Assembly: GCA_017937065.1 (NCBI GenBank)
Contig: JAGBEI010000014.1
Coordinates: forward strand, 71,154-135,153
Reading direction: 5' to 3'
Source: Clostridia bacterium
GTDB lineage: Bacteria > Bacillota > Clostridia > Oscillospirales > QAKW01
Length of the DNA: 64,000 nt
In this document: in pieces, positions 7,663 to 53,806 of the stretch
Layout of the letters: every line of letters starts with the position of its first letter
Position numbering within the stretch: the stretch's first letter is position 1
Position numbers and translations under genes: made by a program
The notes under the pieces: generated by a model
Told to the model about the DNA's origin: nothing
The model's database searches: none
The model's input: only the letters and a program-made list of their open reading frames with translations

Positions 7663-9150
7663 ATGCTTGACAATAATTTCTTTAAGGAGCCGATGCCCGT
7701 ACCGGCGCAGATATCGACGCTTGACGCTCCCGTGCAGATAGAGCCGATGCTTTCGTTTCACAGCGACGACCCTCTTATAAAAGGCGCGCTGATGCTTTTT
7801 ATCCGTGATTTTGAGCGCTATCACGGTGTTAAGATAAAGATAACCGACGCCGTCAAAGCCGCCGGATTTGTTCTTTTCCGAAAGAAGGCGGACGAGCTGA
7901 ACCTTGAAAATCCGTCTGCTTTTGAGGAATGTCGCGCAGAAAACTATTCGATTGTATCAGAAAACGGCACATTGGTTCTGAACTATATCGGGCTTAAAAG
8001 TCTTAACCACGCGCTCGCCGCGCTCCTGAGGCTTTCCGAGATAAGGGACGGCAAAATACTGTGGAATTACTCCGAGCTGCTGGACGGTCCGCAGTGCAAA
8101 TACCGCGCTTTTCATGTGGATTTGGGCAGGAATTTTCACAGTGTCGGCAGACTTTTCGAATATATAGACATGTGCTTTTGCTATAATCTCAGTCATCTGC
8201 ACCTGCATTTTAACGAAAATCAGAGCTACACCCTGCCGTCCAAGCTGTATCCCAAGCTTCCCACCAAGGATAGACACTATTCGTTTGAGGAAATACGCGA
8301 GCTTAACAGGTATGCGCTTCGCCGCGGGGTCAGTCTTGTGCCTGAGGTGGACATTCCCGGGCACTGCAATGCATTCGGCGCGGCGTATCCCAAGCTGTTC
8401 GGTACAAGCGGCGTCATCTGTCAGCACGAAGATTCAATGAAAGCGGTGCGTGAGATTGTTGATGAGGTCTGCACAATGTTTCCCTACTCCGAATATATTC
8501 ACGTAGGCGGCGACGAGGCGGATATAAAAAAGTGGACTGAGTGTGAAAAATGCCTTGCTTACTTTGAGACGGTTGACAAGGCGGCGGTGGACGCATTTAA
8601 AAACGGCGGGGACAGCCGTGCGCTTGCCGAGCGTATGCTTGCACACTTTATAACGGTTACCTGCGACGTTGTCTTAAAGGCGGGCAGAACTCCCATTGTG
8701 TGGGAGGGCTTTAATAAGTGCGTAAATGATTTTATATCCCGAAAAATCGTCGTTATGAGCTGGGAAAATTACTATCAGACGACAGACGAGCTTTTGGACG
8801 CGGGATTTAATATTATAAACTGCTCATGGAATCCTCTGTATATCGTGACTCCCAATAAGATGTGGAGTCCGTCGGAGATAGCGGACTGGGATATTTTCAA
8901 GTGGACGCCCGTTCATCCCGACTCCCCCTATATCGGACGTACGCTGGAGATTGACAAAAGCTTTGGAAAACAGATATGGGGCGCGCAGCTGCACGCCTGG
9001 GGCGACTGTCTTGCAAGGAAATTTGAGGATATTGAACAGGGTGTGGCAAAGGAGACGGAAAACATTGCAAATCGCCTGCCGGCGCTTTCACTGAACGTTT
9101 GGAACACTCCGGAGCAGAAGGAAAGGGCTCTGAAAAAGACGCGGCAATAA
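7663..9150 (+). CDS. glycoside hydrolase family 20 (beta-N-acetylhexosaminidase-like)
   Basis: RAFHVDLGRNF and HVGGDE catalytic-region motifs. No signal peptide is visible. Confidence 0.8.
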   Translation: MLDNNFFKEPMPVPAQISTLDAPVQIEPMLSFHSDDPLIKGALMLFIRDFERYHGVKIKITDAVKAAGFVLFRKKADELNLENPSAFEECRAENYSIVSENGTLVLNYIGLKSLNHALAALLRLSEIRDGKILWNYSELLDGPQCKYRAFHVDLGRNFHSVGRLFEYIDMCFCYNLSHLHLHFNENQSYTLPSKLYPKLPTKDRHYSFEEIRELNRYALRRGVSLVPEVDIPGHCNAFGAAYPKLFGTSGVICQHEDSMKAVREIVDEVCTMFPYSEYIHVGGDEADIKKWTECEKCLAYFETVDKAAVDAFKNGGDSRALAERMLAHFITVTCDVVLKAGRTPIVWEGFNKCVNDFISRKIVVMSWENYYQTTDELLDAGFNIINCSWNPLYIVTPNKMWSPSEIADWDIFKWTPVHPDSPYIGRTLEIDKSFGKQIWGAQLHAWGDCLARKFEDIEQGVAKETENIANRLPALSLNVWNTPEQKERALKKTRQ

Positions 9151-9228: not shown

Positions 9229-9257
9229 TTGACACATTTTCGTAAAAGATGTATAAT
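9229..9257 (+). promoter_or_regulatory. sigma-A consensus promoter for rny
   Basis: TTGACA, 17-nt spacer, TATAAT. The ORF-track start at 9249 falls inside this promoter. Confidence 0.65.
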
Positions 9258-9302
9258 ATTAAAAGCTATGCTGTATATAAATTCAAACAAAGGGAGGACA
9301 TT

Positions 9303-10856
9303 ATGACTGCATTAACAGTAGTTATCATTGCGGTCGCCGCTGCCCTTGTTGCCGGATTTATTGCTTTTATATGTGGATTTTTTTACAGAAAATCGGTATC
9401 GGAAAAACAAATTGGTTCTGCTAACGATGAAGCGAGAAGAATTATCAATGAGGCGATAAAAACAGCTGACACGAAAAAGAAAGAAGCGATTCTCGAGGCT
9501 AAGGAACAGCTACATAAGGAGAGGACCGAACAGGAGCGCGAGATAAAGGAGCGCCGTGTCGAGGTGACAAGGCAGGAAAAGCGCCTGCAGCAGAGAGAGG
9601 AAACTCTTGACAGAAAGTACGATAATCTTGACAGAAAAGAAGAGCAGCTCAATGCAAAGCTGAAAAAGGCGGAGGAGCTGCAGCAGGAAATGGAGGAGCA
9701 GAAGCGCGCGCAGATTGCGGTGCTGGAGCGTATTTCCGGCTATACCGCGGAGGCGGCAAAGGCTGAGCTTCTGCACGAGCTTGAGCAGCAGCTTGAGCAT
9801 GACTATGCCGTTAAAATTACGGAGCATGAGGCGCGTTATGCCGAGAATGCCGACGAAAAGGCGAGAAACCTTTTGTCGCTTGCGATACAGAAATGCGCCG
9901 CCGACCATGTTGTGGAGTCCACCGTCTCGGTGGTCGCGCTGCCCAGCGACGAGATGAAGGGCAGAATTATCGGGCGCGAGGGCAGAAATATTCGGTCGCT
10001 TGAAACAATCACGGGTGTTGACCTTATAATCGACGATACGCCCGAGGCGATAACGCTGTCCAGCTTTGACCCCATCCGCCGCGAGGTTGCAAGGCTTACT
10101 CTTGAAAAGCTCATATCTGACGGGCGCATCCATCCCGCACGTATTGAAGAAACCGTGGAAAAAATGAAGCGCGAGCTGGATATCACTATTAAAAAAGAAG
10201 GCGAGCGCGCTGTGTTTGAAACGGGCGTTCACGGTCTTCACCCGGAGATTATTAAACTGCTGGGCAGACTTAAATACAGAACAAGCTACGGTCAGAACGT
10301 GCTCAACCACTCCATTGAGGTGGCGCAGCTGTGCGGCATCATCGCGTCGGAGATGGGCGAGGACGTAACTCTTGCAAAGCGCGCGGGTCTTTTGCATGAC
10401 CTGGGTAAGAGCGTAGACTTTGAAATGGAGGGCTCTCATATCCAAATCGGTGTAGAGCTTGCTAAAAAATACAAGGAGTCTTACGGCGTTATTCACGCGA
10501 TAGAGGCACATCACGGCGATGTGGAAACAAAAACCAATATTGCGGCTATCGTTCAGGCGGCAGACGCAATTTCGGCGGCAAGACCTGGCGCCAGACGCGA
10601 AAATCTCGAAAATTATATCAAGCGTCTTGAAAAGCTCGAGGAGATTGCAAACTCCTTTGACGGCGTTGAAAAAACCTATGCCATTCAGGCGGGACGTGAA
10701 ATACGCATAATGGTAAATCCGGAGCAGATATCGGACGATAAGCTGGTGCTGTTGTCCCACGATATCTGTAAGAAAATTGAAAACGAACTGGAGTATCCTG
10801 GACAAATCAAGGTTCATCTTATCCGCGAAAACCGTGCAATCGATTACGCAAAGTAA
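9303..10856 (+). CDS. rny: ribonuclease Y
   Basis: N-terminal TM, coiled coil, KH domain ([12 protein letters not shown]) and HD domain (HHGD). The ATG at 9303 follows an AGGGAGGA RBS. Confidence 0.95.
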
Positions 10857-22784: not shown

Positions 22785-23594
22785 TTAAAACCGACCGTTA
22801 AATACCGACTGCATAAAGTCTGCGACCTGCTCTGAGGTTACACTTTCTTTTCCTGCAAGCTCGCTGTACCGCGCAAAAAGCGCCGCACTGTTCTGCGCGG
22901 TTTTTTGCTTGAATTCCTCACTCGGCTGCCATTTATAGCCCTTGTCCGCGCTGTATGCGTCATCTGCATTGTTTTTTTCGTTTATTTCTTCAATATAATC
23001 GCCCACGCGCAAGAGCAGATTTTTCGGCTCCGAAAAATCCGGAATGCGCGACAAAACCGCCGCTTTTGCCTTATCGTACTGACCGATATATTCTTCAAGA
23101 CTGCCGCCCGACAGCGCCTCTTTCTCATTCTGTGCAATCGTGACCATGCCTGCTGCGTCAATCCGCGGATATGCCTCGGTATAAATCGGCAGCAGATAGA
23201 TAAGCTCGTCTCCGTAAACCCAAGGCTGTGCGTCGATTATGTATGTTTCGCCTTTTTTCATGTTCATTCTTGATACAAACTCGTCTGTCGTGCCCAGGCA
23301 GTACAGCTTTGCCTGCCCCGACGGCGTGTAGCCGTCAAGGCTTTGGGTGATGTTGACTGTATACACAGTGTATTTTGTGAGGTCAATATTATATTTTGTA
23401 ATAAGTGCGTCCTCGGTTGCGACCGACAGAATTTCGCCCACAAAGAGATTTTTCTGAAGCTCGACCGTGTTTTCCAGGCGGCTTGTAATCGCCGTATCTT
23501 CGCCTACTATTTTCTGCCCCTGTCCGCTGTCGGCGCAGCCGCTGCACAAAAGCACCGCCGCTGTGAGAATCAGACCTATCAGTCGTTTTACCAT
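22785..23594 (-). CDS. lipoprotein of unknown function
   Basis: Lipobox LLCSGC is present after the start at MVKRLIG. That ATG overlaps the upstream stop (TAATG). Confidence 0.7.
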   Translation of the reverse strand: MVKRLIGLILTAAVLLCSGCADSGQGQKIVGEDTAITSRLENTVELQKNLFVGEILSVATEDALITKYNIDLTKYTVYTVNITQSLDGYTPSGQAKLYCLGTTDEFVSRMNMKKGETYIIDAQPWVYGDELIYLLPIYTEAYPRIDAAGMVTIAQNEKEALSGGSLEEYIGQYDKAKAAVLSRIPDFSEPKNLLLRVGDYIEEINEKNNADDAYSADKGYKWQPSEEFKQKTAQNSAALFARYSELAGKESVTSEQVADFMQSVFNGRF

Positions 23595-25585
23595 TATTGT
23601 TTTATATCCTCCTGTATATCCCAAATCTGATGCGACGGTGTGTTCTGACCGCGCCCGCTCGCGGGATTCCATACGTCGGACGAATTCTCGCCCTCCGGCG
23701 TGCCTTCGGAATTTTCGGGATTATCTGTCGTTTGTGAAGAATCGGACGTTTCGCCGCTGTCAGTGCCGTTCTCCGCGTCAGGCTTTGTGTCCGTCTCATT
23801 TGCCGGAGACTGAACCGTATCCGAGTCTGACGGGTTGTCCGTGCTTTCGGGCGTTTGGGACGGATTTTCCGTCCGCGTGCCCTCGCCCGTCTGTGTGCCG
23901 CTTTCATCATTGCTGCTGTCGGCGGGATTGCTCGTGCTCGGAGTGTCGCCGCCGCTTTCGGTGTCGGTCGGGGTTTGCGTTTCAGGCTCTATTTCCTCCG
24001 GCGTTACGCCGTCGTCGGTATCGGGCGCCGCGGGTTCTTCGGGAACCTCGGGAGTCTCCTGCGGGACGTCCTCGTAAACGCTTTCGGCATACAGCGCGAC
24101 CGCCTGCTCGAAGAATACGTTCTGGCGCTCGTAAAAGCTCTGCAATTTAAAATACATATCGGAAATTTTTTCGCCGAACTTAAACTCGTTTTCACTCTCT
24201 ATCTTGTTCTTCACCGCCTCCGCAATGCTGAACTTTGACGAGAGATCCAGCTCAACGCCCGTGTCGATAAGATTTTTGTAAAAAACGGGGGTGGAATATC
24301 CGTTTATAAGCATGGTGTCGTTAAGGCGCGCTATCTCCAGCCTGTCGCTGTAATCGGGCTTGATGTATGCGCGGATATAATGCGGCGCCCAGGAATCGTA
24401 AGGGTTTTCGGCGCGGATTGACATGCTGCTGATATCGAAAACGCACATGCCCTCGGGCATTTCCAGCTTGAAGGATGAGGTTGTGCCCAGCTCAAAATCG
24501 TCGGTGCCCAAAGTGTCTAACAGAAAGCTCTCGGTATACCCGCCGCTGGGCTTTTCGGAAAAGAAGGTGACGTCCAAAAACAGCCGCCCGTCGTAGTCCA
24601 GCGAGTCGGTTTCGGGGATATCCACGCCTTTTGTATAATAGGTAAGAATATTATTTTGGATTTGGATATTTACCGTTTCGATATCAAGATACAAAAATTT
24701 TCCGCCGTTAAGCCCCAGTGAATCGAGCGCGTCCGCCTTGAGCGTGTCGCTCATGAGCTCGGTCGCGCCTTTTTGCGCAAGGCTCAGATAATATGAGTAT
24801 ATCTGCTTTGTGCGGTTGTATTTATTGTTTTCACCGTGCACGATTTCCAGCGTTGACTGTTTGACGGTGTTTTCACCGTCGCCGAACACCGCAACGTCCT
24901 CCCAGCTCTCGCGCGCGAGCATCATCGGCTCGTTGCCGAGCAGAAAATAAACCCGCGCCCAGCGGCAGTGCCACTGGTCGTAATTGTTGTTGATGTCGGG
25001 CAGAACGGCAATCGTGTATTCGGTAATGTCAAACGGCGTATAGCCGAAAGGCAGAATGAGCGTGAACGTGTCGGTCATGCCGCTTTCGAAATTGTCGTAG
25101 TTTGAGTTTTGGAGCGCAAATTCGGTAGTATTTCCGTCGGAAAAGGCAAGGCGGATATTTACGCCGCCGCGGTCCAGCCCCACGCCGCGGGGGTTTATAT
25201 AGTTTTCGTCGTCTGTTTTAAGCGTGACCTGTATGCGGTTGGACGAGCCGAGCGCGTAAAGTGAGCGCAGATACGGCACCGTGTCGTCAAACTCGGTCAT
25301 GGTCAGGCGCGAGATAATGCGGCGGTTGCCGTCAAAAAACGGACAGACAAATTTTGTAAACAGCGCGGACATAACGCACAGCACCGCGATGCATGCCGCC
25401 GCGGCGCAGCCGGTGATAAACGGCACGCTTTTAATAAAGCTTTTAAATCGGGCGCTTTTGAAAAAGCGTTTTATTTTGCGCAAGGTGAATTTTATATTAA
25501 CCGCCGCCCATTTTTTCAGGCGTTTTCTGTAACGGTAATCGTTGAATTTTTCGATTAATTTTTTCAAGGCGGGATTTCCTTTCAA
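23594..25585 (-). CDS. single-pass membrane protein with two PLAT-like internal repeats and a long acidic Thr/Pro/Ser/Glu-rich tail
   Basis: Basic N-terminus followed by one TM. Repeat signature is F.L..P.G...FDI....I...D.W....R.Y. The last ~160 aa are low complexity. Confidence 0.6.
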   Translation of the reverse strand: MKGNPALKKLIEKFNDYRYRKRLKKWAAVNIKFTLRKIKRFFKSARFKSFIKSVPFITGCAAAACIAVLCVMSALFTKFVCPFFDGNRRIISRLTMTEFDDTVPYLRSLYALGSSNRIQVTLKTDDENYINPRGVGLDRGGVNIRLAFSDGNTTEFALQNSNYDNFESGMTDTFTLILPFGYTPFDITEYTIAVLPDINNNYDQWHCRWARVYFLLGNEPMMLARESWEDVAVFGDGENTVKQSTLEIVHGENNKYNRTKQIYSYYLSLAQKGATELMSDTLKADALDSLGLNGGKFLYLDIETVNIQIQNNILTYYTKGVDIPETDSLDYDGRLFLDVTFFSEKPSGGYTESFLLDTLGTDDFELGTTSSFKLEMPEGMCVFDISSMSIRAENPYDSWAPHYIRAYIKPDYSDRLEIARLNDTMLINGYSTPVFYKNLIDTGVELDLSSKFSIAEAVKNKIESENEFKFGEKISDMYFKLQSFYERQNVFFEQAVALYAESVYEDVPQETPEVPEEPAAPDTDDGVTPEEIEPETQTPTDTESGGDTPSTSNPADSSNDESGTQTGEGTRTENPSQTPESTDNPSDSDTVQSPANETDTKPDAENGTDSGETSDSSQTTDNPENSEGTPEGENSSDVWNPASGRGQNTPSHQIWDIQEDIKQ

Positions 25586-28374: not shown

Positions 28375-29502
28375 TTATATCTTAATAATATCAAACATGC
28401 TGTCCATAACCGTCATCATCGGCTTATAGAACGACATCACCGTCCAGATTGAATAGCCTGCAAGATTATAATTGCGCAAAAGCTGCATTTTCGCCGCGAC
28501 CGAGCGTGCGTCCTCAAACCAGACGACGTGCTGACGTCCGTTTGAGTCATAGTAGTTATAATAGGGCGTCTGCGCGGTCTCATCGTACATTATTTCCGCG
28601 CCCACCTCGCGCGCCAGCTCTATCGCCCTGTTGTTGGAAATCGCCTGTGCGGCGTTGCCCTTGATAAACGGCAAAGTCCAGTCATAGGCGTAATTGGGTA
28701 TTCCCATCAGCAGCTTTTCGGGCGGAATTTGGCTTACGGCGTACCGCACAACCTCCTCCACCTTGTTAAGCGGCGCGACCGCCATGGGCGGGCCGTAGGT
28801 ATAGCCCCATTCATAGGTCATTATCAGCACATAATCCGCCGCCGCGCCCAAAGCTGCATAGTCGTGCGCCTCGTACAGCAGTCCCGGCTGATCTGAACTG
28901 GTTTTCGGCGCCAGCGCCACCATAACCTTATAGCCCAGCGGCTGGGCAAGCGAGTGCAGAAGCTCGATAAACTTGACATACTGCTGTTTAAATCTCGGTG
29001 GTATGTACTCAAAGTCAACGTCTACGCCGAAATAGTTGTGCGTCTGCAATTTTGCAATAATATTGTTTGCCAGCGCCATTGTCGCCTCCTCACTGCCCAA
29101 AATCGCCGCCGCATTCTCCGAGCTGAACCGCCCGTCCTCGGTAAGCGTTGTAACAAGCAGTACGGGAGCTACGTTGTTATTTTCCGCGATGGTTATGAGC
29201 TCGCTGTCGTCCAGGTCGACAAGCGTGCCGTTGGGACGTATTCCGTACGAAAACGGAGTCAGCGTTGACAGAAACGGCAGCGTCGGAAACAGCGCCGCTT
29301 TGTCAATATGCGGATAAGCATAGCCGTTTGCCAGAACTCTGCCCAGCTTTTCGGCGGGAGACGGCACAATAATCGCCTGACCGACTATCAGCGTGGGCTG
29401 CACCGTCGGACCGTTTGCCGCCAAGAGCTGCTCTATCGTCACCCCGTACATTTTTCCGATAGAGTATAGAGAATCGCCCTTTTGTGTCACATGGATTATC
29501 AT
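28375..29502 (-). CDS. LysM-domain glycoside hydrolase family 18 (YaaH/SleL-type spore peptidoglycan hydrolase)
   Basis: N-terminal LysM (GDSLYSIGKMYGVTIEQLLAANG) and the GH18 catalytic motif GVDVDFEY. Confidence 0.85.
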   Translation of the reverse strand: MIIHVTQKGDSLYSIGKMYGVTIEQLLAANGPTVQPTLIVGQAIIVPSPAEKLGRVLANGYAYPHIDKAALFPTLPFLSTLTPFSYGIRPNGTLVDLDDSELITIAENNNVAPVLLVTTLTEDGRFSSENAAAILGSEEATMALANNIIAKLQTHNYFGVDVDFEYIPPRFKQQYVKFIELLHSLAQPLGYKVMVALAPKTSSDQPGLLYEAHDYAALGAAADYVLIMTYEWGYTYGPPMAVAPLNKVEEVVRYAVSQIPPEKLLMGIPNYAYDWTLPFIKGNAAQAISNNRAIELAREVGAEIMYDETAQTPYYNYYDSNGRQHVVWFEDARSVAAKMQLLRNYNLAGYSIWTVMSFYKPMMTVMDSMFDIIKI

Positions 29503-30340: not shown

Positions 30341-31123
30341 ATGAACACAAAACTTAAAGCCATAGTAGTACAGCCTAATATGGAAAACATGAGAACCGTG
30401 TGTGAATTTTTAAAATCACACGGCTATGAGATAAGCGCAACAACACCGTCAGGCAGCGAAGCGGCTGCGCTTATTGTCAAAAACGAGCCTCAGGTAATAA
30501 TATCCGACGCATATCTGCTTGATGTGGACGTGTGCGGTATGCTGGATATTTTGGAGCAGCGCGGTTTTTCGGGAAAGTCGGTTTTTGTAGTGGCAACAGG
30601 TATTAACAGCGCCTGTATAATCGAAAACGTTCTTAACCGCGGCGTCGACCTGTTTACGCTTATTCCGTTTAACAGCGAATATGCCGACAGAAAAATCCGC
30701 GATATTTACGCTAAAAAACAGCAGTCCGCATTGGCTGGACGTTCCTCATGCGGCGCGCAGATGGACGAATTCGAGCTTTTGAACTACGTTTCAAGGCTTA
30801 TGCACGAGGTCGGCGTGCCCGCATCAATCCGCGGCTACGACTATATACGCGAGTCCATTATGATGGCGCTGGACGACCGCAATATTTTAAAGTCCATAAC
30901 AAAGGAGCTGTACCCCAGCATTGCCAAAAGCAACGACACGACCTCCTCCAGGGTGGAGCGCGCGATAAGGCACGCGGTTGAGGTCGCATGGCAGCGCGGC
31001 GATGTTGAGGTTTTAAACAATATTTTCGGATATACGGTTAAAAGCACAAAGGGCAAACCGACCAACGGCGAGTTTATTTCCATGCTGACGGAGCGTGTTC
31101 GTCTTGATCTGAAAATTTCCTGA
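30341..31123 (+). CDS. spo0A: Spo0A-like sporulation transcription factor with an atypical receiver domain
   Basis: The C-terminal Spo0A DNA-binding domain is unmistakable (YPSIAKSNDTTSSRVERAIRHAVEVAW). The N-terminal REC-like domain lacks the DD pair and the Lys. Confidence 0.8.
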   Translation: MNTKLKAIVVQPNMENMRTVCEFLKSHGYEISATTPSGSEAAALIVKNEPQVIISDAYLLDVDVCGMLDILEQRGFSGKSVFVVATGINSACIIENVLNRGVDLFTLIPFNSEYADRKIRDIYAKKQQSALAGRSSCGAQMDEFELLNYVSRLMHEVGVPASIRGYDYIRESIMMALDDRNILKSITKELYPSIAKSNDTTSSRVERAIRHAVEVAWQRGDVEVLNNIFGYTVKSTKGKPTNGEFISMLTERVRLDLKIS

Positions 31124-33288: not shown

Positions 33289-33395
33289 TTCTGCTCTCCT
33301 TTATTGTTTTTTATAATTATAAAACAAACGGATATTTATATCAAGAAAAATTTATATTGACAAACAGAGTTAAATTGTATAATATGTAAGAAATT

Positions 33396-33554
33396 GATAG
33401 AGGTGCGGAAATTATGAGTACGCCGGGATTACATGGGAAAGCATACCGGCGGAAAGGAATAACGCCGAAGCCGCAGTTTTGTCCCTTTTCCGGTCAGGTG
33501 CGGCTGGCGCAGGTCAGAATATGTCCTGTGCTGTCACGCAAGTGGAGAGCTATC
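33396..33554 (+). promoter_or_regulatory. lysine riboswitch (L-box) aptamer
   Basis: Conserved blocks appear in order: GATAGAGGTGCG, GAGTA, GGGAAAG, GCCGAAG, GCTGG, CTGTCA, GGAGAGCTATC. The P1 helix is GATAG/CTATC. Confidence 0.85.
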
Positions 33555-33577
33555 GTGTCTGTCATTCGGTTCGCGGC

Positions 33578-33615
33578 AGCTTTTGGGCTGTGCGCGGGCT
33601 TTTTATTTTTCGGCG
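33578..33615 (+). terminator. riboswitch expression-platform terminator
   Basis: Imperfect stem CGCGGCAGC/GCTGTGCGCG followed by GGCTTTTTATTTTT. Confidence 0.55.
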
Positions 33616-33648
33616 CCGCTGTCAAAAACTAAAATAGGAGAAGGGAAA

Positions 33649-35430
33649 ATGAAAAACAAAAGGATATTTTTGTTTGTTGCCGTCATACTCTGCGTGACGA
33701 TGCTGTTTTCCACCGCTTTTGCAGACGGCGAAACAGCGCCCGATGCGCCCGATTTATCGGTGTCGTCGGATATAGGCGGTGACGCCGCGCCGGCAGACGG
33801 CGCCGATGCAGCTTCAGATGAAGCTGCGCCTGACGCTTTAAGTTCGGATGATGGCGCGTCCGACACCGCCGAAGGCGAAGAGGAGGAGTATCAAAGTCCG
33901 TTTTATTCAACAATTTGGGCACTGCTTCCTCCGCTTATCGCAATAGCGCTTGCACTTATCACAAAAGAGGTTTATTCCTCGCTCTTTATCGGTATCCTTG
34001 TGGGCGGTCTTTTGTGGTCGGGCTTCAGCTTTGAGGGCACCATGACCCATGTGCTGTCCGACGGGTTTGTCGGCTCGCTGGCGGACAGCTACAACGTCGG
34101 TATTCTGCTGTTTCTTGTAATACTCGGCGCGCTGGTTGTCATGATGAACAAGGCGGGCGGCTCTGCGGCGTTCGGCCGCTGGGCGGCGGAGCATATAAAA
34201 TCGAGAACAGGCGCGCAGATTGCGACAATAATTCTCGGTATACTTATCTTTATTGACGATTATTTCAACTGCCTGACAGTCGGCTCGGTAATGCGCCCTG
34301 TCACCGACAAGCAGAATGTGTCGCGCGCCAAGCTGTCCTATCTTATTGACGCGACTGCGGCGCCCGTTTGCATCATCGCACCCGTTTCGTCCTGGGCGGC
34401 GGCGGTCGCAGGCTTTGCCGAGGGCTCGGGTATGAACGGTTTCGAGCTGTTTGTGCGTGCCATTCCGTATAACCTCTATGCACTTCTGACAATCGGCATG
34501 ATGTTTGCCATCACTCTGATGAAGTTTGATTTCGGTCCGATGAAAAGGCATGAGGAGAATGCCAAAAAAGGCGATATTTTTTCCAACGAAAAGCTCAAAG
34601 AGGTCGCCGACAGTATGGAGGGCAACCCGCGCGGCAGAGTGTACGACCTTGTTCTGCCGATTGCCGTGCTGATAGTCTTGTGCGTACTCGGTATGATTTA
34701 TTCCGGAAATTTCTTTACCCCCGGCAAGGAGGGCTATCACAACTTTGTAACTGCATTTTCCGGCAGTGACGCGTCGGTAGGTCTGGTTATCGGCTCGTTC
34801 GGCGCGCTGATTTTCACCGTTATATATCTTATTTGCAGACGTGTGCTGTCGTTTAAGAGCTGTATGGAGTCAATTCCCGAGGGCTTTAAGTCAATGGTAC
34901 CTGCCATCATGATTCTGACCTGCGCATGGACGCTTAAAACGATGACCGACAGTCTGGGCGCCGCTGACTATATTCATGATATTGTTCAGGGCTCGGCGCG
35001 TGCGCTTCAGAGCTTTTTGCCTGCTATCATCTTCCTTATTGCGGTAGGACTTTCTTTTGCGACAGGTACGTCCTGGGGCACTTTCGGCATACTTATTCCG
35101 ATAGTTATAGATGTGTTCGGCTTTAACAGCGGCGAGATTACCATTATTGCCATCTCCGCGTGTATGGCGGGCGCTGTCTGCGGCGACCACTGCTCGCCCA
35201 TCTCCGACACTACCATTATGGCGTCGGCGGGCGCCCAGTGTAACCATCTTGTGCACGTTTCGACGCAGCTGCCCTACGCGCTGTTTGTTGCGGGTATATC
35301 TTTTGTCGGCTATATTGTCGCGGGCTTTGTAAGAAATGTATACATCTCGCTTATCGTATCTTTCGCATTGCTTGCACTGGCGCTTTTCCTTGCATATGTC
35401 ATTTCCGGCCGCAGCAAATCAAAAGCCTGA
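33649..35430 (+). CDS. NhaC-family transporter (LysW-type candidate lysine transporter)
   Basis: Polytopic NhaC-like core. The ATG at 33649 follows a GGAGAAGGG RBS. The ORF-track start at 33583 lies inside the riboswitch terminator. Confidence 0.85.
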   Translation: MKNKRIFLFVAVILCVTMLFSTAFADGETAPDAPDLSVSSDIGGDAAPADGADAASDEAAPDALSSDDGASDTAEGEEEEYQSPFYSTIWALLPPLIAIALALITKEVYSSLFIGILVGGLLWSGFSFEGTMTHVLSDGFVGSLADSYNVGILLFLVILGALVVMMNKAGGSAAFGRWAAEHIKSRTGAQIATIILGILIFIDDYFNCLTVGSVMRPVTDKQNVSRAKLSYLIDATAAPVCIIAPVSSWAAAVAGFAEGSGMNGFELFVRAIPYNLYALLTIGMMFAITLMKFDFGPMKRHEENAKKGDIFSNEKLKEVADSMEGNPRGRVYDLVLPIAVLIVLCVLGMIYSGNFFTPGKEGYHNFVTAFSGSDASVGLVIGSFGALIFTVIYLICRRVLSFKSCMESIPEGFKSMVPAIMILTCAWTLKTMTDSLGAADYIHDIVQGSARALQSFLPAIIFLIAVGLSFATGTSWGTFGILIPIVIDVFGFNSGEITIIAISACMAGAVCGDHCSPISDTTIMASAGAQCNHLVHVSTQLPYALFVAGISFVGYIVAGFVRNVYISLIVSFALLALALFLAYVISGRSKSKA

Positions 35431-37574: not shown

Positions 37575-37875
37575 TTTTTTGCCCTATCTTCTGATTATGG
37601 CGGGCGTTACTTATCTTCTGCGCATGGTGCCGCTTGTTTTTCTGCGCAGTAAGATAAAAAACAGGTTTGTAATATCCTTTCTGCACTATATCCCCGTTGC
37701 AGTGCTCAGCGTTATGGTCGTGCCCGCTGTCTTTTATGCGTCCGGCAGCCTCTTGTCGGCGGTTATCGGCTTTGCAGTCGCTGTTGTTTTTTCCTATTTT
37801 GAAAAAAGCTTGGTTCAGGTTGCATGTCTGTCCTGCGCCGCGGTTTTTGTGACCGAGCTTTTAATAAATTTATAG
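37561..37875 (+). CDS. azlD: AzlD-family small membrane protein
   Basis: 104-aa membrane protein with a 14-nt overlap with azlC. Confidence 0.75.
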   Translation: MLRADFLPYLLIMAGVTYLLRMVPLVFLRSKIKNRFVISFLHYIPVAVLSVMVVPAVFYASGSLLSAVIGFAVAVVFSYFEKSLVQVACLSCAAVFVTELLINL

Positions 37876-39615
37876 CGTGTACTTTTTGTCAAACTGCTCG
37901 AATATTCTGTTAAACTGTTCGTTTTCATGCTTTACGCCGTGCAGGTATCTGTGCGTTTCGAAGCTGCCGTGCGCAAGCTCTATGACAGCTGCCGAGATGT
38001 TGGAGCAGTGATCGGATATCCGCTCAAGGTCACTCAGCAGATTGGCAAAGGTCAGCCCTTGCTCAATGGTGCACGCTCCGCTTTGCAGGCGTTTTACATG
38101 GTTCTTGTGCATTTTCGCCGTAAGCTTGTCAATGACCTGCTCGAGCGGCTCGGTGTTTACGGCAAGCAGAGGGTCGTTGTTTAAAAACGCGTCCGAAGTT
38201 ATCTGAGTTATCTCCTTTACTGCGGCGCTTAGTACGGAAAGCTCCCGCATAGCGTCGTCCGAGTATCCCTTTGTTTTTTCCAGAAGCTCACCGGTATCAA
38301 GGCTTATATGCAGCGCATGGTCGCACATGCGTTCAAGGTCGCTTACCGTGTACAGCATACGGGACACGCGCGCGCTGTCCTCATCTGAGAGCGATTTCTC
38401 GGCGATTCGTACAAGGCTTGTAAGCAGCATGTCCTCGTACATGTCGGAGCGCTTTTCGTTATCCGCCACGGTATCGGATACCTTTTTATCGTATTTTGAT
38501 ATCTGATTGAGAGATAATAATACGGTGTCCCGTGAAAGCCGCGCCATCTCCCGCGTCTTTGACATACATTCGCTGACGGCAACCGACGGGGACATAAACA
38601 GTCGCTCGTCCAGAGCTGAAATTCCGTCTTTTTCCGGCGCGCCGTCCTTAACAATCCTGCATATGAGTTTTTCCAGCTTTGCTGTAAACGGTAAAATCAG
38701 CAGCGTTGACAGAACATTAAACGCCGTGTGCGCCGCGGCTATGCCGACAGGGCTTATTGCCGATGAGAAAAACGGACCGCCTGCGGTTATGCGCAGTATT
38801 TCAAACAGAGTGAAGAACACCGCCGTTCCGATTACGTTTACCGATGTGTGCGCCGCGGCTACCCGCTTTGCATTTTTGCTGCCGCCGATGCAGGATATCA
38901 GCGCTGTGATGCAGGTTCCGATGTTCTGACCCATGATGATCGGCAGTGCGGTTGACCAAGTCACGGCGCCCGTCAGTGCAAACGCCTGCAAAATACCCAC
39001 CGATGCCGAGGACGACTGAATCAGCGCCGTGATAACGATACCTGCAATCAGGCTTAAAAACGGATTTTCAAACTTTACCATGAGCGAGGCAAATTCCGGC
39101 GTGTCCGCAAGCGGGCTTACGGCGCTTGTCATAAACTTCATTCCGTAAATGAGTACCGCAAACCCGATAAGTACCCGTCCTGCGTCCCTTTGCCTGCTCT
39201 TTTTGGCGGACATTATTAAAATCACGCCCAAGAGCGCCAGAAACGGCGTAAAATTTTCCGGCTTGAGCATAGATACGAATATATTTTTGCTCTCAATTCC
39301 CGCAAGGCTTAAAATCCATGCGGTGACGGTTGTACCTATATTTGCGCCGAAAATAATGTACAGAGTTCCCGCAAATTCCATTATTCCGGAATTTACAAGC
39401 CCCACAAGCATAACGGACGTTGCGGACGACGACTGTATAACCATTGTTATCACCATGCCCAGAAACAGACTGAGCGCAGGCTTTTTCTGCGCATGCTTGA
39501 GCACGCGCTCCAGCCTGCCGCCGGCGGATTTTTCGAGATTTTCAGATAATGTCAGCATGCCGAACAGGAAAAATGCAATGCCGCAGATAAATTGTATAAT
39601 GCTGTAAATGCTCAT
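37870..39615 (-). CDS. Na/Pi cotransporter family protein with C-terminal PhoU-like repeats
   Basis: Duplicated QSSSA(T/S) transporter motifs and a helical PhoU-like C-terminal half. Confidence 0.85.
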   Translation of the reverse strand: MSIYSIIQFICGIAFFLFGMLTLSENLEKSAGGRLERVLKHAQKKPALSLFLGMVITMVIQSSSATSVMLVGLVNSGIMEFAGTLYIIFGANIGTTVTAWILSLAGIESKNIFVSMLKPENFTPFLALLGVILIMSAKKSRQRDAGRVLIGFAVLIYGMKFMTSAVSPLADTPEFASLMVKFENPFLSLIAGIVITALIQSSSASVGILQAFALTGAVTWSTALPIIMGQNIGTCITALISCIGGSKNAKRVAAAHTSVNVIGTAVFFTLFEILRITAGGPFFSSAISPVGIAAAHTAFNVLSTLLILPFTAKLEKLICRIVKDGAPEKDGISALDERLFMSPSVAVSECMSKTREMARLSRDTVLLSLNQISKYDKKVSDTVADNEKRSDMYEDMLLTSLVRIAEKSLSDEDSARVSRMLYTVSDLERMCDHALHISLDTGELLEKTKGYSDDAMRELSVLSAAVKEITQITSDAFLNNDPLLAVNTEPLEQVIDKLTAKMHKNHVKRLQSGACTIEQGLTFANLLSDLERISDHCSNISAAVIELAHGSFETHRYLHGVKHENEQFNRIFEQFDKKYTL

Positions 39616-39943
39616 TTTTCACCTCCGAAAATTGGTTTTGTTTCATAAGTTAGTATCGACTGTTGCCCGATAAATATTTGTAAAAATTAAGAAAGCCGCA
39701 CGAAAAAAATCCGCGCGGCTTTTGTGTGGAAAGTTATATTAGAAAAAATATTGCTGTATTGCTTTGTCTGCAGTTTTGTCCGCAGGTCTCCCCACGGGTT
39801 TGTATCCAGACTTACGACGGCAATGCCTGCCGCCGGGAGGGCTCCCGCCGAAAAACTCGATAATCCCTCCGCCTCGTTAACCAAGCTTAAAATTTTGGTC
39901 TGGCGCTTTTAAAATTCCCTTTAAAACAACTGCCCACCTTTCT
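39616..39943 (-). other. long GC-rich structured 5' leader of the Na/Pi cotransporter gene, with a terminator-like hairpin (class not recognised)
   Basis: Lies between a consensus promoter and the start codon. Hairpins seen are CGGCA/TGCCG, GGAGGG/CCCTCC, CTGC/GCAG, and AAGCCGCGCG/CGTGCGGCTT followed by a T-rich tract. Confidence 0.45.
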
Positions 39944-39949
39944 GCTGAC

Positions 39950-39978
39950 AGTATATCATAAAGGCGGGCAGTTGTCAA
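39950..39978 (-). promoter_or_regulatory. sigma-A-type promoter
   Basis: On the minus strand: TTGACA, 17-nt spacer, TATACT. Confidence 0.6.
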
Positions 39979-50122: not shown

Positions 50123-53100
50123 ATGATTACAAAATCGAACTTCAGAGATGTACTAAAGGCACTTTCTTTTATAGAAATATCCGCCGATTTATATGAAAAG
50201 CGGTATGAGATATTTGACTGTTCAATAACTGTTGATTTCAAAAAAGAAAAAATCACATACCCGGAGGATAAGGGTATGCGGATAGACCGCCATACAACGG
50301 ATAATTTTTCCGCAAACGAGAATTTTGTTGTTTTGGAATGCGTGGACAGGCTTTTATCAAAGGGCTATCGACCCGAGCACATTGAGCTTGAAAAGAAATG
50401 GTCTTTGGGACATATGATTTCCGGCGGAGAGGACAGCGGTTTTGCCGATATATGCGTTTACGGCAACGACGGCAAGGTTCTCTTTATCATAGAGTGCAAA
50501 ACCGCCGGAAGCAAATATGCAAGGGAATACGGCAAAATCCTGAGCTACGGCGGGCAGCTGTTTTCATATTGGCAGCAGCAGCGCAGCTGTAAGTTTATTA
50601 TTCTCTATGCCTCTGATTTTGCGGACGGCAGGCTGTTTTATACAACCGACAGCGTGGATTGCAGCGACGACCGGAATATCCTTGCCCTTGCCGAGAAAGA
50701 CGATTCTATTCTGCTCTACAAAAATGCACATGCCGTAGAGGATTTATACGCCGTATGGGATGAAACGTACGAAAGGCGTTTTTGCGGTGACGTCGTTTTC
50801 CGCGATGACTCCGTCGCATATAAAATCGGCGCGAAACCGCTTCGCAAGGGCGATCTCAAGGATATCAGAGAAAACGATAAGATTGTCAATAAATTTGAAG
50901 AAATTCTGCGCCATAACAGTGTTTCCGACAAGGAAAACGCCTTTAACAGACTGATTGCCCTTTTCATCTGCAAGCTCGTTGATGAAATTCAGAAGGGCGA
51001 TAACGATGAGGTGGAATTTCAGTATCGGGTAGGAACCGACACATACGAATCTCTGCAGGACAGACTTCAGCGCTTACATAAGGAGGGCATGGAGAAGTTT
51101 ATGCGCGAGGAGATTTTCTATGTTCCGGATACCTATGCCGAGGAATTGGTACAGCAGTACTGCGGGTATAAGCGCAGGAATATGATTGAAGACCTGAAAA
51201 GGACACTGCGCATTCTGAAGTTTTACACAAATAATGACTTTGCCTTTAAAAATGTTCATAATGAGGAGCTGTTCTATCAAAACGGTAAAATAGTTGTGGA
51301 AGTGGTGAAGCTTTTTGAGCGTTACCGAATTATCGACTCTTCCGATGTGCAGATGCTCGGTGATTTGTTTGAGCAGCTGCTTAATAAAGGCTTTAAACAA
51401 AATGAAGGACAGTTTTTCACGCCTATTCCGATTACAAGGTTTATCTGGGACAGTCTTCCCGTTACAGGGACAGTCAAAAAGGAACGCGGTGCGGAGTATC
51501 CGAAAATAATAGACTATGCCTGCGGCGCAGGTCATTTTTTGACGCAGGGCGTGGAGGCTGTCGATGCAGCTGTTAAAAAGACCAATCCCTCTGCCGAAAA
51601 CGGACACTCCTGGATAGAGAACAGGGTTTACGGTATAGAAAAAGACTACCGCCTTGCCCGCGTGTCGAAAATATCCCTGTTCATGCACGGCGCGGGAAAT
51701 GCAAATGTGATATTCGGCGACGGTCTTGAAAATTATTCCGACAAGGGAATCGTGCCGGGCAGCTTTGACATTCTTGTTGCCAACCCGCCTTACGCGGTTA
51801 AGGCGTTTAAGAGCCATTTGAAGCTGAAGAACAATTCGTTCAGGCTGCTGAATAAAATCACAAATGACGGTTCTGAAATCGAGACGCTTTTTGCCGAGCG
51901 TATTTCACAGCTGCTAAAGCCCGGCGGTATAGCCGCGGTTATTCTGCCATCTTCAATACTGAGCAACGATTCCGGCAGTTATACGGGAGCGCGAGAGGAG
52001 CTTTTACAGCATTTTCGTATTTGTGCAATTACCTGCTTCGGCAGTAAAACCTTCGGTGCGACGGGGACGAATACGGTTGTTTTGTTTCTGCAAAAGCTTG
52101 ATGAGACGCCCGCGCGCTTTAAATTGGCGGAGGACAGCGCAGATGCAGTTCTTTCCGGCAGATCCCTTGAGAATTGGGAGGACGGGGAAATATATTATTC
52201 CTACCTTGCACAAGTTGAGTGTGACAGGAAATTTTACAGAGCCTTAATCAAAGAATCAAAGCCGTACGGCTATTTCGCAAACGATAAATACCTGAAAAAC
52301 TATACCGCTGCGTTTGAGGAGCTTGCGGATGTAAAAGCCAAGAAAAGGCAGAAAACATTTAAGAACATGAGCGCCGGGGAGCAGGCAAAATGGATGAATC
52401 AGCGTTTCTATGCCTTTGTTAAGGAAAGAGAAAAGGAAAAGCTGATGTATTTTGCCATGGTTTACAAGCAGACGGTTTTGATTGTTACAGCGCCTGCGGA
52501 CAATGCAAAACAGAAAGCGTTTCTCGGCTATGACTGGAGCAACCGCAAGGGCAATGAGGGTATTGTTATCAATACGCCCGGAGGAATGCTGTATGACGAC
52601 AGCGACCGCTTTGCAGACGATACGCTTTCCGGCATGATACGTGATTCGTTTGCCGGTAAGCTGAGATCGCTGCCGAAATATGAGCAATACTATCGCTATG
52701 CAAATCTGCGTGATATGATTGATTTTTCACGGGTTGAATTTAACAAGGCGATAAAGACTGCCGTCAAAAATAGGCTTCAAAGCAAATACCCTCTTGTACC
52801 TTTGAAAACATTATTGCTGGATATTATCGGAAATACCACTAAGACGGCAAATACAGATACCCTGCCGAGCGGGAGTATCCCTGTCGTTTCGCAAAATACG
52901 GATTCGTTAATAAGCGGCTATGTTGAAACAAGCAGACCTATAGAGGACTTGCCCGTTATATTGTTCGGTGATCATACCTGTTGTTTCAAGTATATTGATT
53001 TTCCGTTTGTAAGGGGCGCGGACAATACGCAGCTTTTAAAATTCAACGACACCGTTATTCCGAAATATATGTATTACGTGCTGCCGGAAATTGAAATCGA

Positions 53101-53806
53101 AAATAAGGATAAATACGAAAGACATTTCAAGTATTTAAAACAGGCGCTTGTCCCCGTTGCGCCGCTCGATATTCAGCAGAAAATCGTTGACGAGTGTGCC
53201 TTAATAGACGAGGAGTATAACGCTGTGCGTACAGCTATTGAAAAACATCGGGAAAGCATTGAAAAACTTTTTGCCGAGGCTGCAGCGTCAGGCGGGACAA
53301 CGGTAAGGCTTGACTCTTCGGAATTATTCGCGCTCGGTATAGGAAAGCGGGTTTTGAAAAAGCAGATTACGGATACAGGCATACCTATTTACAGTGCAAA
53401 CGTAAACGAGCCTTTCGGATATATAGAGGATGCTGTGTTTGATGATTATTCTGTCGGCACCGTTATCTGGGGGATTGACGGCGATTGGGATGTAAGCTAT
53501 ATCCCGCCGCAGACTCCGTTCTATCCGACAGACCACTGCGGAACCCTGCGTGTTTTATCCGACGGAATAAACGCGCATTATGTTGCTTTCGCTCTCAAGG
53601 CGGAGGGCATACGGCAGAGATTTACCCGCTCAAACCGTGCGTCAGCCGACCGTGTGAAGGCGTTGAGATTAACGCTGCCCGATAAAAAAGTACAGGACGA
53701 TTTTACGGCAAAGGCAGAAAAAGCAGATACTGAAATCGCAAAGCTCAATGCAAGGCTTGCGGCTGTCAACGCGGCAAAACGGGATGTGCTGAAAAAATAT
53801 TTGTGA
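50123..53806 (+). CDS. single-chain restriction-modification-specificity enzyme (Type IIB/IIG-like)
   Basis: N-terminal PD-(D/E)xK (FADICVY...FIIECK). Gamma-class N6-adenine methyltransferase with motif I DYACGAGHFL and motif IV NPPY. The C-terminus holds two HsdS-like target-recognition domains separated by helical spacers. Confidence 0.8.
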   Translation: MITKSNFRDVLKALSFIEISADLYEKRYEIFDCSITVDFKKEKITYPEDKGMRIDRHTTDNFSANENFVVLECVDRLLSKGYRPEHIELEKKWSLGHMISGGEDSGFADICVYGNDGKVLFIIECKTAGSKYAREYGKILSYGGQLFSYWQQQRSCKFIILYASDFADGRLFYTTDSVDCSDDRNILALAEKDDSILLYKNAHAVEDLYAVWDETYERRFCGDVVFRDDSVAYKIGAKPLRKGDLKDIRENDKIVNKFEEILRHNSVSDKENAFNRLIALFICKLVDEIQKGDNDEVEFQYRVGTDTYESLQDRLQRLHKEGMEKFMREEIFYVPDTYAEELVQQYCGYKRRNMIEDLKRTLRILKFYTNNDFAFKNVHNEELFYQNGKIVVEVVKLFERYRIIDSSDVQMLGDLFEQLLNKGFKQNEGQFFTPIPITRFIWDSLPVTGTVKKERGAEYPKIIDYACGAGHFLTQGVEAVDAAVKKTNPSAENGHSWIENRVYGIEKDYRLARVSKISLFMHGAGNANVIFGDGLENYSDKGIVPGSFDILVANPPYAVKAFKSHLKLKNNSFRLLNKITNDGSEIETLFAERISQLLKPGGIAAVILPSSILSNDSGSYTGAREELLQHFRICAITCFGSKTFGATGTNTVVLFLQKLDETPARFKLAEDSADAVLSGRSLENWEDGEIYYSYLAQVECDRKFYRALIKESKPYGYFANDKYLKNYTAAFEELADVKAKKRQKTFKNMSAGEQAKWMNQRFYAFVKEREKEKLMYFAMVYKQTVLIVTAPADNAKQKAFLGYDWSNRKGNEGIVINTPGGMLYDDSDRFADDTLSGMIRDSFAGKLRSLPKYEQYYRYANLRDMIDFSRVEFNKAIKTAVKNRLQSKYPLVPLKTLLLDIIGNTTKTANTDTLPSGSIPVVSQNTDSLISGYVETSRPIEDLPVILFGDHTCCFKYIDFPFVRGADNTQLLKFNDTVIPKYMYYVLPEIEIENKDKYERHFKYLKQALVPVAPLDIQQKIVDECALIDEEYNAVRTAIEKHRESIEKLFAEAAASGGTTVRLDSSELFALGIGKRVLKKQITDTGIPIYSANVNEPFGYIEDAVFDDYSVGTVIWGIDGDWDVSYIPPQTPFYPTDHCGTLRVLSDGINAHYVAFALKAEGIRQRFTRSNRASADRVKALRLTLPDKKVQDDFTAKAEKADTEIAKLNARLAAVNAAKRDVLKKYL

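Follow-up and report, generated by a model that had tools for sequence, protein, structure and literature searches.

A glmS ribozyme ahead of a Na/Pi-PhoU transporter gene in a small clade of spore-forming Clostridia

Background

The gene for a Na/Pi symporter in a member of the Clostridia is preceded by a long structured leader, and the question raised by this locus is what the leader RNA is and whether it takes part in the control of the transporter gene. An initial annotation of the DNA had considered the leader to be of unrecognised class. The window analysed here is the whole 64-kb stretch of DNA around the locus and belongs to a metagenome scaffold of 352 kb (protein MBP3480658.1). The same species recurs across many samples, and a 2.1-Mb contig and the assembly GCA_964323745.1 are among its sequences.

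Identification of the leader RNA

The whole 64-kb window scanned against Rfam at gathering thresholds has given two matches, among them a match to the glmS ribozyme family (RF00234) on the minus strand at 39918-39756. The match scores 85.9 bits, where the gathering score is 37, and its E-value of 2e-18 for the whole window places the structured RNA far above chance. It spans model positions 1-167 without truncation. The claim of an unrecognised class falls because of this significant match: the RNA corresponds to a full-length glmS ribozyme, a class missing from the list that the initial annotation had gone through. That annotation had proposed an Rfam scan and had taken a significant match to a known family as speaking against its proposal, and such a match is what the scan returned. 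The sequence features that it had described are all real and lie at the coordinates it gave. The match to RF00234 includes the helices P1, P2, P2a, P3, P4 and P4.1, and the GC-rich centre, with the sequence quoted for it, is correctly described, with 52% GC between AT-rich flanks.

The alignment to the family displays the ACGAGG hexamer, the P2 pairing GGAGG/CCUCC, a UCGA...UCGG hairpin, the CGGCGG segment and the helices P3, P4 and P4.1. The self-cleavage site predicted from membership of the family lies on the minus strand between A39907 and G39906 (AAAA/GCGCC). A mutational and simulation study of the ribozyme of Bacillus subtilis has named A37, C38, G39, A40, G41, G42 and C54 as active-site residues, together with G55, A56, U61, G67 and the IL4 purines A114 and A139-141 (PMC11602151). 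When mapped via the consensus alignment, all of these residues fall on bases that are present in the window ribozyme and invariant in the five lineages compared below. We infer from this mapping that the window ribozyme keeps an intact catalytic core. Its departures from the consensus are a short P1 of 6 bp and an A for G immediately 5' of ACGAGG, the latter being outside the residue network named in PMC11602151. Of the double pseudoknot of the core (P2.1/P2.2), the complementarity of CGCC (39905-39902) and GGCG for P2.2 could be recognised by eye; the Rfam model ignores pseudoknots, and the bases concerned are all invariant and so offer no covariation test.

The ribozymes of B. subtilis, B. 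anthracis and Thermoanaerobacter tengcongensis belong to the same family and share with the window copy the helices, the A/GCGCC context of the cleavage site, the ACGAGG/CGGCGG core and the IL4 purines. A search of a plasmid collection for canonical glmS examples to serve as comparison gave no match. Based on these sequence comparisons the leader RNA is considered a bona fide glmS ribozyme, that is, a member of a GlcN6P-dependent self-cleaving family. Its chemistry is presumably that of the known glmS ribozymes, with GlcN6P as the catalytic cofactor. As an RNA it is an ordinary member of RF00234, and the unusual part is its genomic context.

A lysine riboswitch (RF00168, 80 bits) has also been identified in the window, on the plus strand at 33390-33560, upstream of an ORF at 33583-35430 that encodes a Na+/H+ antiporter-family protein of NhaC type. 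It also occurs in the related loci L085-L089, with 49-75 bits. The association of a lysine riboswitch with an NhaC-type gene is of a known type, and the gene is a candidate lysine transporter.

Genomic context of the ribozyme

The gene downstream of the ribozyme (37870-39615, minus strand) encodes a Na/Pi symporter of 581 residues with a C-terminal PhoU-like domain. Pfam domains Na_Pi_cotrans (2e-58) and PhoU (5e-21) have been assigned to it, and it matches the NCBIfam family NF037997 (Na/Pi symporter) with 196 bits against a cutoff of 50, in agreement with the cotransporter assignment made initially. It is the sole co-oriented gene 3' of the ribozyme, the next genes, AzlD and AzlC, being convergent. 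On the 5' side the leader is flanked by genes for SbcD-like and SbcC-like proteins.

Neither in the 64-kb window nor in any of the related loci that were fetched did tblastn detect a GlmS homologue. The query was a probe for E. coli GlmS, in which Pfam confirms the SIS and GATase domains. The possibility of a glmS gene nearby or in the same operon has been considered and set aside, given this result and the convergent genes after the transporter. The arrangement departs from the canonical feedback on glmS, as the gene downstream of the ribozyme is that of a Na/Pi-PhoU transporter.

The remainder of the window encodes RNase Y (9249-10856, plus strand), a protein with LysM and GH18 domains (28375-29502, minus strand) and Spo0A (30341-31123, plus strand). 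The organism, a member of the Clostridia, forms spores and has amino-sugar-releasing enzymes. An ORF of 663 residues without a Pfam match is located at 23594-25585 (minus strand), and a protein of 1227 residues with N6_Mtase, Eco57I-type methylase and HSDR_N regions, encoded at 50123-53806 (plus strand), looks like a fused restriction-modification enzyme. In some assemblies genes occur in two pieces, namely the SbcC-like gene in the locus L093 (3158-5274) and the NhaC-type gene in the locus L095, which lies on the 2.1-Mb contig (14185-15967). Frameshifts introduced during assembly are the probable cause, and the genes are unlikely to be true pseudogenes.

Organisation of the leader

The leader begins with a sigma-70-type promoter on the minus strand (39950-39978), made up of TTGACA (39978-39973), a spacing of 17 nt and TATACT (39955-39950) with an extended -10 TG. 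It agrees with the consensus at 11 of 12 positions. The initial annotation had described it as strong and had placed it about 330 nt from the start codon; the -10 element is 335 nt from the ATG at 39615. A promoter with 10-11 of 12 matches occurs at the same position in the relatives L088, L091 and L092, and the TG is kept. Transcription is predicted to start near 39943, and the length of the predicted 5' fragment is constant across the lineages at 36-37 nt.

The promoter is embedded in a hairpin on the minus strand at 39926-39974, with the arms CAACTGCCCGCCTTT and AAAGGTGGGCAGTTG followed by U4, which starts 14 nt 3' of the stop codon that ends the SbcC-like reading frame. The upstream operon probably has its terminator in this hairpin, which encloses the promoter of the ribozyme. 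The -35 element overlaps its 5' arm, the -10 element is within the loop, and the 3' arm forms the 5' end of the ribozyme transcript. The -10 element is conserved even though the loop is free of structural constraint, and conservation is higher in the 3' arm than in the 5' one. The five lineages retain the inner 12 pairs, with 85% of cells paired compared to 44-57% in slid controls; covariation measures for this hairpin do not exceed those of shuffles in the five lineages.

Between the ribozyme and the terminator lies a box of 21 nt (39720-39740, minus strand) with the sequence AATATAACTTTCCACAC(A/G)AAA, which is 95-100% identical in the five lineages and is separated from the ribozyme by a variable spacer in their alignment. 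As AATATAACTTTCCACACAAAA the box is invariant across lineages whose synonymous sites are saturated. It occurs as a single copy in the window and in the loci of the relatives, and it is absent from 80 outgroup loci. By eye, the part AUAACUUUCC of the box can also pair with the 5' strand GGAGGGAUUAU of P2.

The box is followed by an intrinsic terminator (39682-39722, minus strand) with a 13-bp GC-rich stem, a loop of 5 nt and the tail CUUAAUUUUU. The terminator scan has located the hairpin AAAGCCGCGCGG...CGTGCGGCTTT at 39722-39692, followed by CTTAATTTTT. It is the hairpin with a U-rich tract that had been noticed before the RBS, and 76 nt separate its end from the start codon. It folds with -21.2 kcal/mol in the window, and its counterparts in L088, L091 and L092, which are followed by tracts of U7-8, fold with -16.5 to -18.1 kcal/mol. 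The sequence of the stem varies by lineage and the fold is kept in each of the five.

The distance from the end of the terminator to the start codon is 60-102 nt across the lineages, and this spacer is AT-rich and poorly conserved. Within it a bipartite motif has been identified by alignment (39650-39678, minus strand), consisting of AATATT (39678-39673), 15 nt and GATACTAA (39657-39650). Across the lineages it takes the form AATATT-N14-16-GATA(C/A)TAA in an otherwise unalignable spacer, and it is a weak candidate for an alternative promoter. The -10 element recognised by clostridial sigma-E and sigma-K has a conserved CATA (PMC3789822). A sigma-E/sigma-K promoter at the bipartite motif has been rejected, the conserved C of CATA being missing. 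Matches to a sigma-70 promoter between the terminator and the RBS are at chance level or non-conserved in the window, L088, L091 and L092. The Shine-Dalgarno sequence GGAGG of the transporter gene, read from the DNA and conserved in the alignment, is located at 39622-39626 (minus strand).

Conservation and distribution

A protein search with the transporter has revealed relatives graded at 91-93%, 80% and 75-76% identity, followed by a gap to 53%. Four diverged lineages have been compared with the window, in which the transporter is 92% (L085), 76% (L088), 75% (L091) and 75% (L092) identical. All four share the gene order SbcD, SbcC, a gap of 360-400 nt and Na/Pi-PhoU. A full-length glmS ribozyme with a score of 84-88 bits is encoded in that gap in each of them, and their shared layout includes a near-consensus promoter, the ribozyme, the 21-nt box, an intrinsic terminator and an RBS.

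The helices of RF00234 have been mapped on the five lineages. The 35 pairs are formed in 98.3% of cells, compared to 30-49% in slid controls. Compensatory changes are seen at 7 pairs, in P4 and P4.1, and the core helices are invariant. The initial annotation had called for conservation and covariation to be checked in relatives, and the four diverged lineages keep the RNA, with these compensatory pairs. Four-fold degenerate sites of the transporter gene are 29-42% identical between the distant lineages and are thus saturated. Over the same comparison the ribozyme is 82-88% and the 21-nt box 95-100% identical. The alignments show that purifying selection has retained the ribozyme within the Na/Pi-PhoU leader, and that it has done so in a clade of spore-forming Clostridia that is small and isolated.

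The glmS core motif was not found in 80 loci of GTDB species representatives whose Na/Pi-PhoU orthologues are 45-52% identical, and these 80 outgroup loci have no flanking gene in common with the clade. In the 20 closest of them no Rfam element was found upstream of the gene. A metagenome scan with the ribozyme pattern of the clade, independent of the downstream context, has returned two loci, both of the 92% lineage and both with the transporter downstream. The association of ribozyme and transporter is clade-restricted.

Possible mode of action

The reading that we favour, with a probability of roughly one half, is that the ribozyme has been recruited so that cleavage triggered by GlcN6P destabilises the read-through mRNA of the transporter. 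Control in cis is favoured because the sole strong and conserved promoter precedes the ribozyme and none that is convincing follows the terminator. Transcription would proceed from the conserved near-consensus promoter with its start at about 39943. When GlcN6P is abundant the folded ribozyme would cut between A39907 and G39906. The 5' fragment set free would be about 37 nt long, and the RNA 3' of the cut would carry a 5'-hydroxyl. An RNA with such an end would be open to 5'-to-3' decay of the RNase J type, as for glmS of B. subtilis. For these steps after cleavage we rely on work in B. subtilis, as reviewed in PMC5473149 and PMC6765202. No gene for RNase J has been seen in the window. The terminator at 39722-39692 would halt most transcripts. 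High GlcN6P would be expected to lower the transporter mRNA, because the transporter would be made from the fraction of transcripts that read through. Terminator and 21-nt box would provide attenuation, and the box, upstream of the terminator, probably serves as a second input, for example as the site of a factor that modulates read-through.

Some considerations weigh against control in cis. A terminator of -16 to -21 kcal/mol intervenes between ribozyme and gene, so that much or all of the transcription may stop before the transporter. Moreover, the whole neighbourhood has come down to the five lineages from a common ancestor, and their conserved adjacency is therefore not proof of functional coupling.

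A serious though rather unlikely alternative is that promoter, ribozyme, box and terminator make up a self-contained small RNA of about 260 nt, and that the transporter is merely a neighbour with its own weak or alternative promoter. The single-stranded box would then be a seed or a protein-binding site, and cleavage would set the stability of the RNA or unmask the box. A structured domain followed by a conserved single strand and a terminator is the layout typical of trans-acting small RNAs, and the leader has this layout. The locus fits a self-contained terminated RNA because the terminator is strong and conserved, lying directly 3' of the box in every lineage, and because the box is constrained like the catalytic core at a distance at which neutral sites are saturated. 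The conserved bipartite motif between terminator and RBS is also in keeping with a separate promoter for the transporter, but it lacks the CATA, and no convincing promoter has been recognised after the terminator. Nor has the module been found apart from the transporter gene in the metagenome scan.

The pairing potential of the box bears on the same alternative. In unconstrained minimum-energy folds of all five lineages the 5' leader GGUGGG(C/U)AGU, which belongs to the fragment released by cleavage, pairs with the box through 8-13 pairs enclosing the ribozyme, as would be expected if cleavage were to unmask it. This is not supported by shuffled boxes, against which the duplex gives p = 0.03-0.24, or by the comparison of cognate and non-cognate pairs, at -13.5 and -12.8 kcal/mol, which reveals no gain. 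The predicted long-range helix between leader and box is a lead. No significant target of the box has been found in the 64-kb window, the best complementary site being marginal at -18.2 kcal/mol compared to -17.7 kcal/mol for the best shuffled box. That site, at 8695-8706 on the plus strand, is a contiguous complement of 12 bp (UUGUGUGGGAGG) with two G-U pairs and is located inside a GH20 gene (7663-9150) that encodes a beta-N-acetylhexosaminidase, an amino-sugar enzyme. A follow-up look-up for this site returned the same species alone.

It is highly improbable that the ribozyme is an evolutionary relic, a functionless glmS leader stranded by rearrangement or by loss of glmS. Its position away from glmS and the terminator that follows it would suit such an origin, but the ribozyme, with its compensatory changes and invariant core, and the box are conserved at a distance at which neutral sites are saturated, and a decaying relic is therefore excluded. 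The promoter is conserved as well, and tblastn has placed glmS beside the transporter in no relative.

A new riboswitch class, in which some other ligand, perhaps related to phosphate, would act through a terminator and an antiterminator, is barely credible: the terminator does lie 3' of the structured RNA, and in 4 of the 5 lineages the GC-rich P2/P3 strand offers its 5' arm an alternative partner, with -12 to -17 kcal/mol, but this pairing is missing in L092 and is weaker than the terminator, and the RNA is a full-length RF00234 member with intact catalytic core. The attenuation layout proposed by the initial annotation stands as regards an intrinsic terminator 3' of a sensor. It is not supported as regards the mechanism, since no conserved antiterminator competing with the terminator was found in the five lineages and glmS ribozymes act via GlcN6P-dependent self-cleavage and do not refold upon ligand binding (PMC6765202, PMC11602151).

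Comparison with known systems

The glmS ribozyme has been described as confined to the leaders of glmS (PMC6765202, PMC5473149, PMC9971707). Known members precede glmS, whereas the copy in the window precedes a Na/Pi-PhoU transporter gene; the window leader also differs from the known glmS leaders in the conserved 21-nt box and the strong terminator between ribozyme and ORF. In the survey of McCown et al. 2011, all but two of 463 glmS ribozyme representatives reportedly occurred in glmS mRNAs. Isolated exceptions outside glmS may already be on record. A literature search has yielded no reported link of the glmS ribozyme to a phosphate transporter or to any gene other than glmS. What is new here is the context of ribozyme and transporter, with a conserved box and a terminator between sensor and gene; the RNA family itself is known. 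The suggestion of a novel ligand-sensing leader on a phosphate/sodium symporter accordingly holds for the unusual presence of a metabolite-sensing RNA at such a gene, and not for the RNA class.

No riboswitch class is commonly associated with phosphate transporters (PMC9971707). Fluoride riboswitches likewise are sensing RNAs upstream of phosphate transporters, an association that is occasional and defensive, and they differ from the present case in RNA class and ligand (PMC9971707). In Faecalibacterium prausnitzii, a gut member of the Clostridia, glmM is preceded by an HDV-like ribozyme, another self-cleaving RNA that is linked to GlcN6P and to a gene other than glmS. It differs in that it belongs to another family, its target is in the amino-sugar pathway and GlcN6P is a modulator and not a cofactor (PMC6765202).

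A conceptual parallel for a small RNA released from such a leader is found in SreA and SreB of Listeria, which are terminated riboswitch RNAs acting in trans, and in GlmY and GlmZ, through which the enterobacterial glmS is controlled by small RNAs according to GlcN6P status; at the present locus no trans target has been found. We know of no small RNA that uses a self-cleaving ribozyme as its gate.

Implications

The presence of a selected copy before a Na/Pi-PhoU gene suggests that the glmS ribozyme can be redeployed as a general sensor of GlcN6P. That it has become, by uncoupling from glmS, a portable GlcN6P sensor serving either a phosphate transporter or the gating of a trans-acting RNA of about 260 nt is a speculative proposal that we consider unlikely at present. 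Metabolite-sensing RNAs on genes of phosphate homeostasis are conspicuously missing according to Breaker's survey of 2022, and the leader would be one of the rare cases. The conserved box and the terminator hint at a second regulatory input or at a role in trans, and a ribozyme-gated trans-acting RNA, if true, would be the first ribozyme-gated regulatory RNA. The glmS ribozymes are also being pursued as targets for antibiotics, the premise being that their activation starves cells of GlcN6P, and targets other than glmS would complicate this picture in gut commensals.
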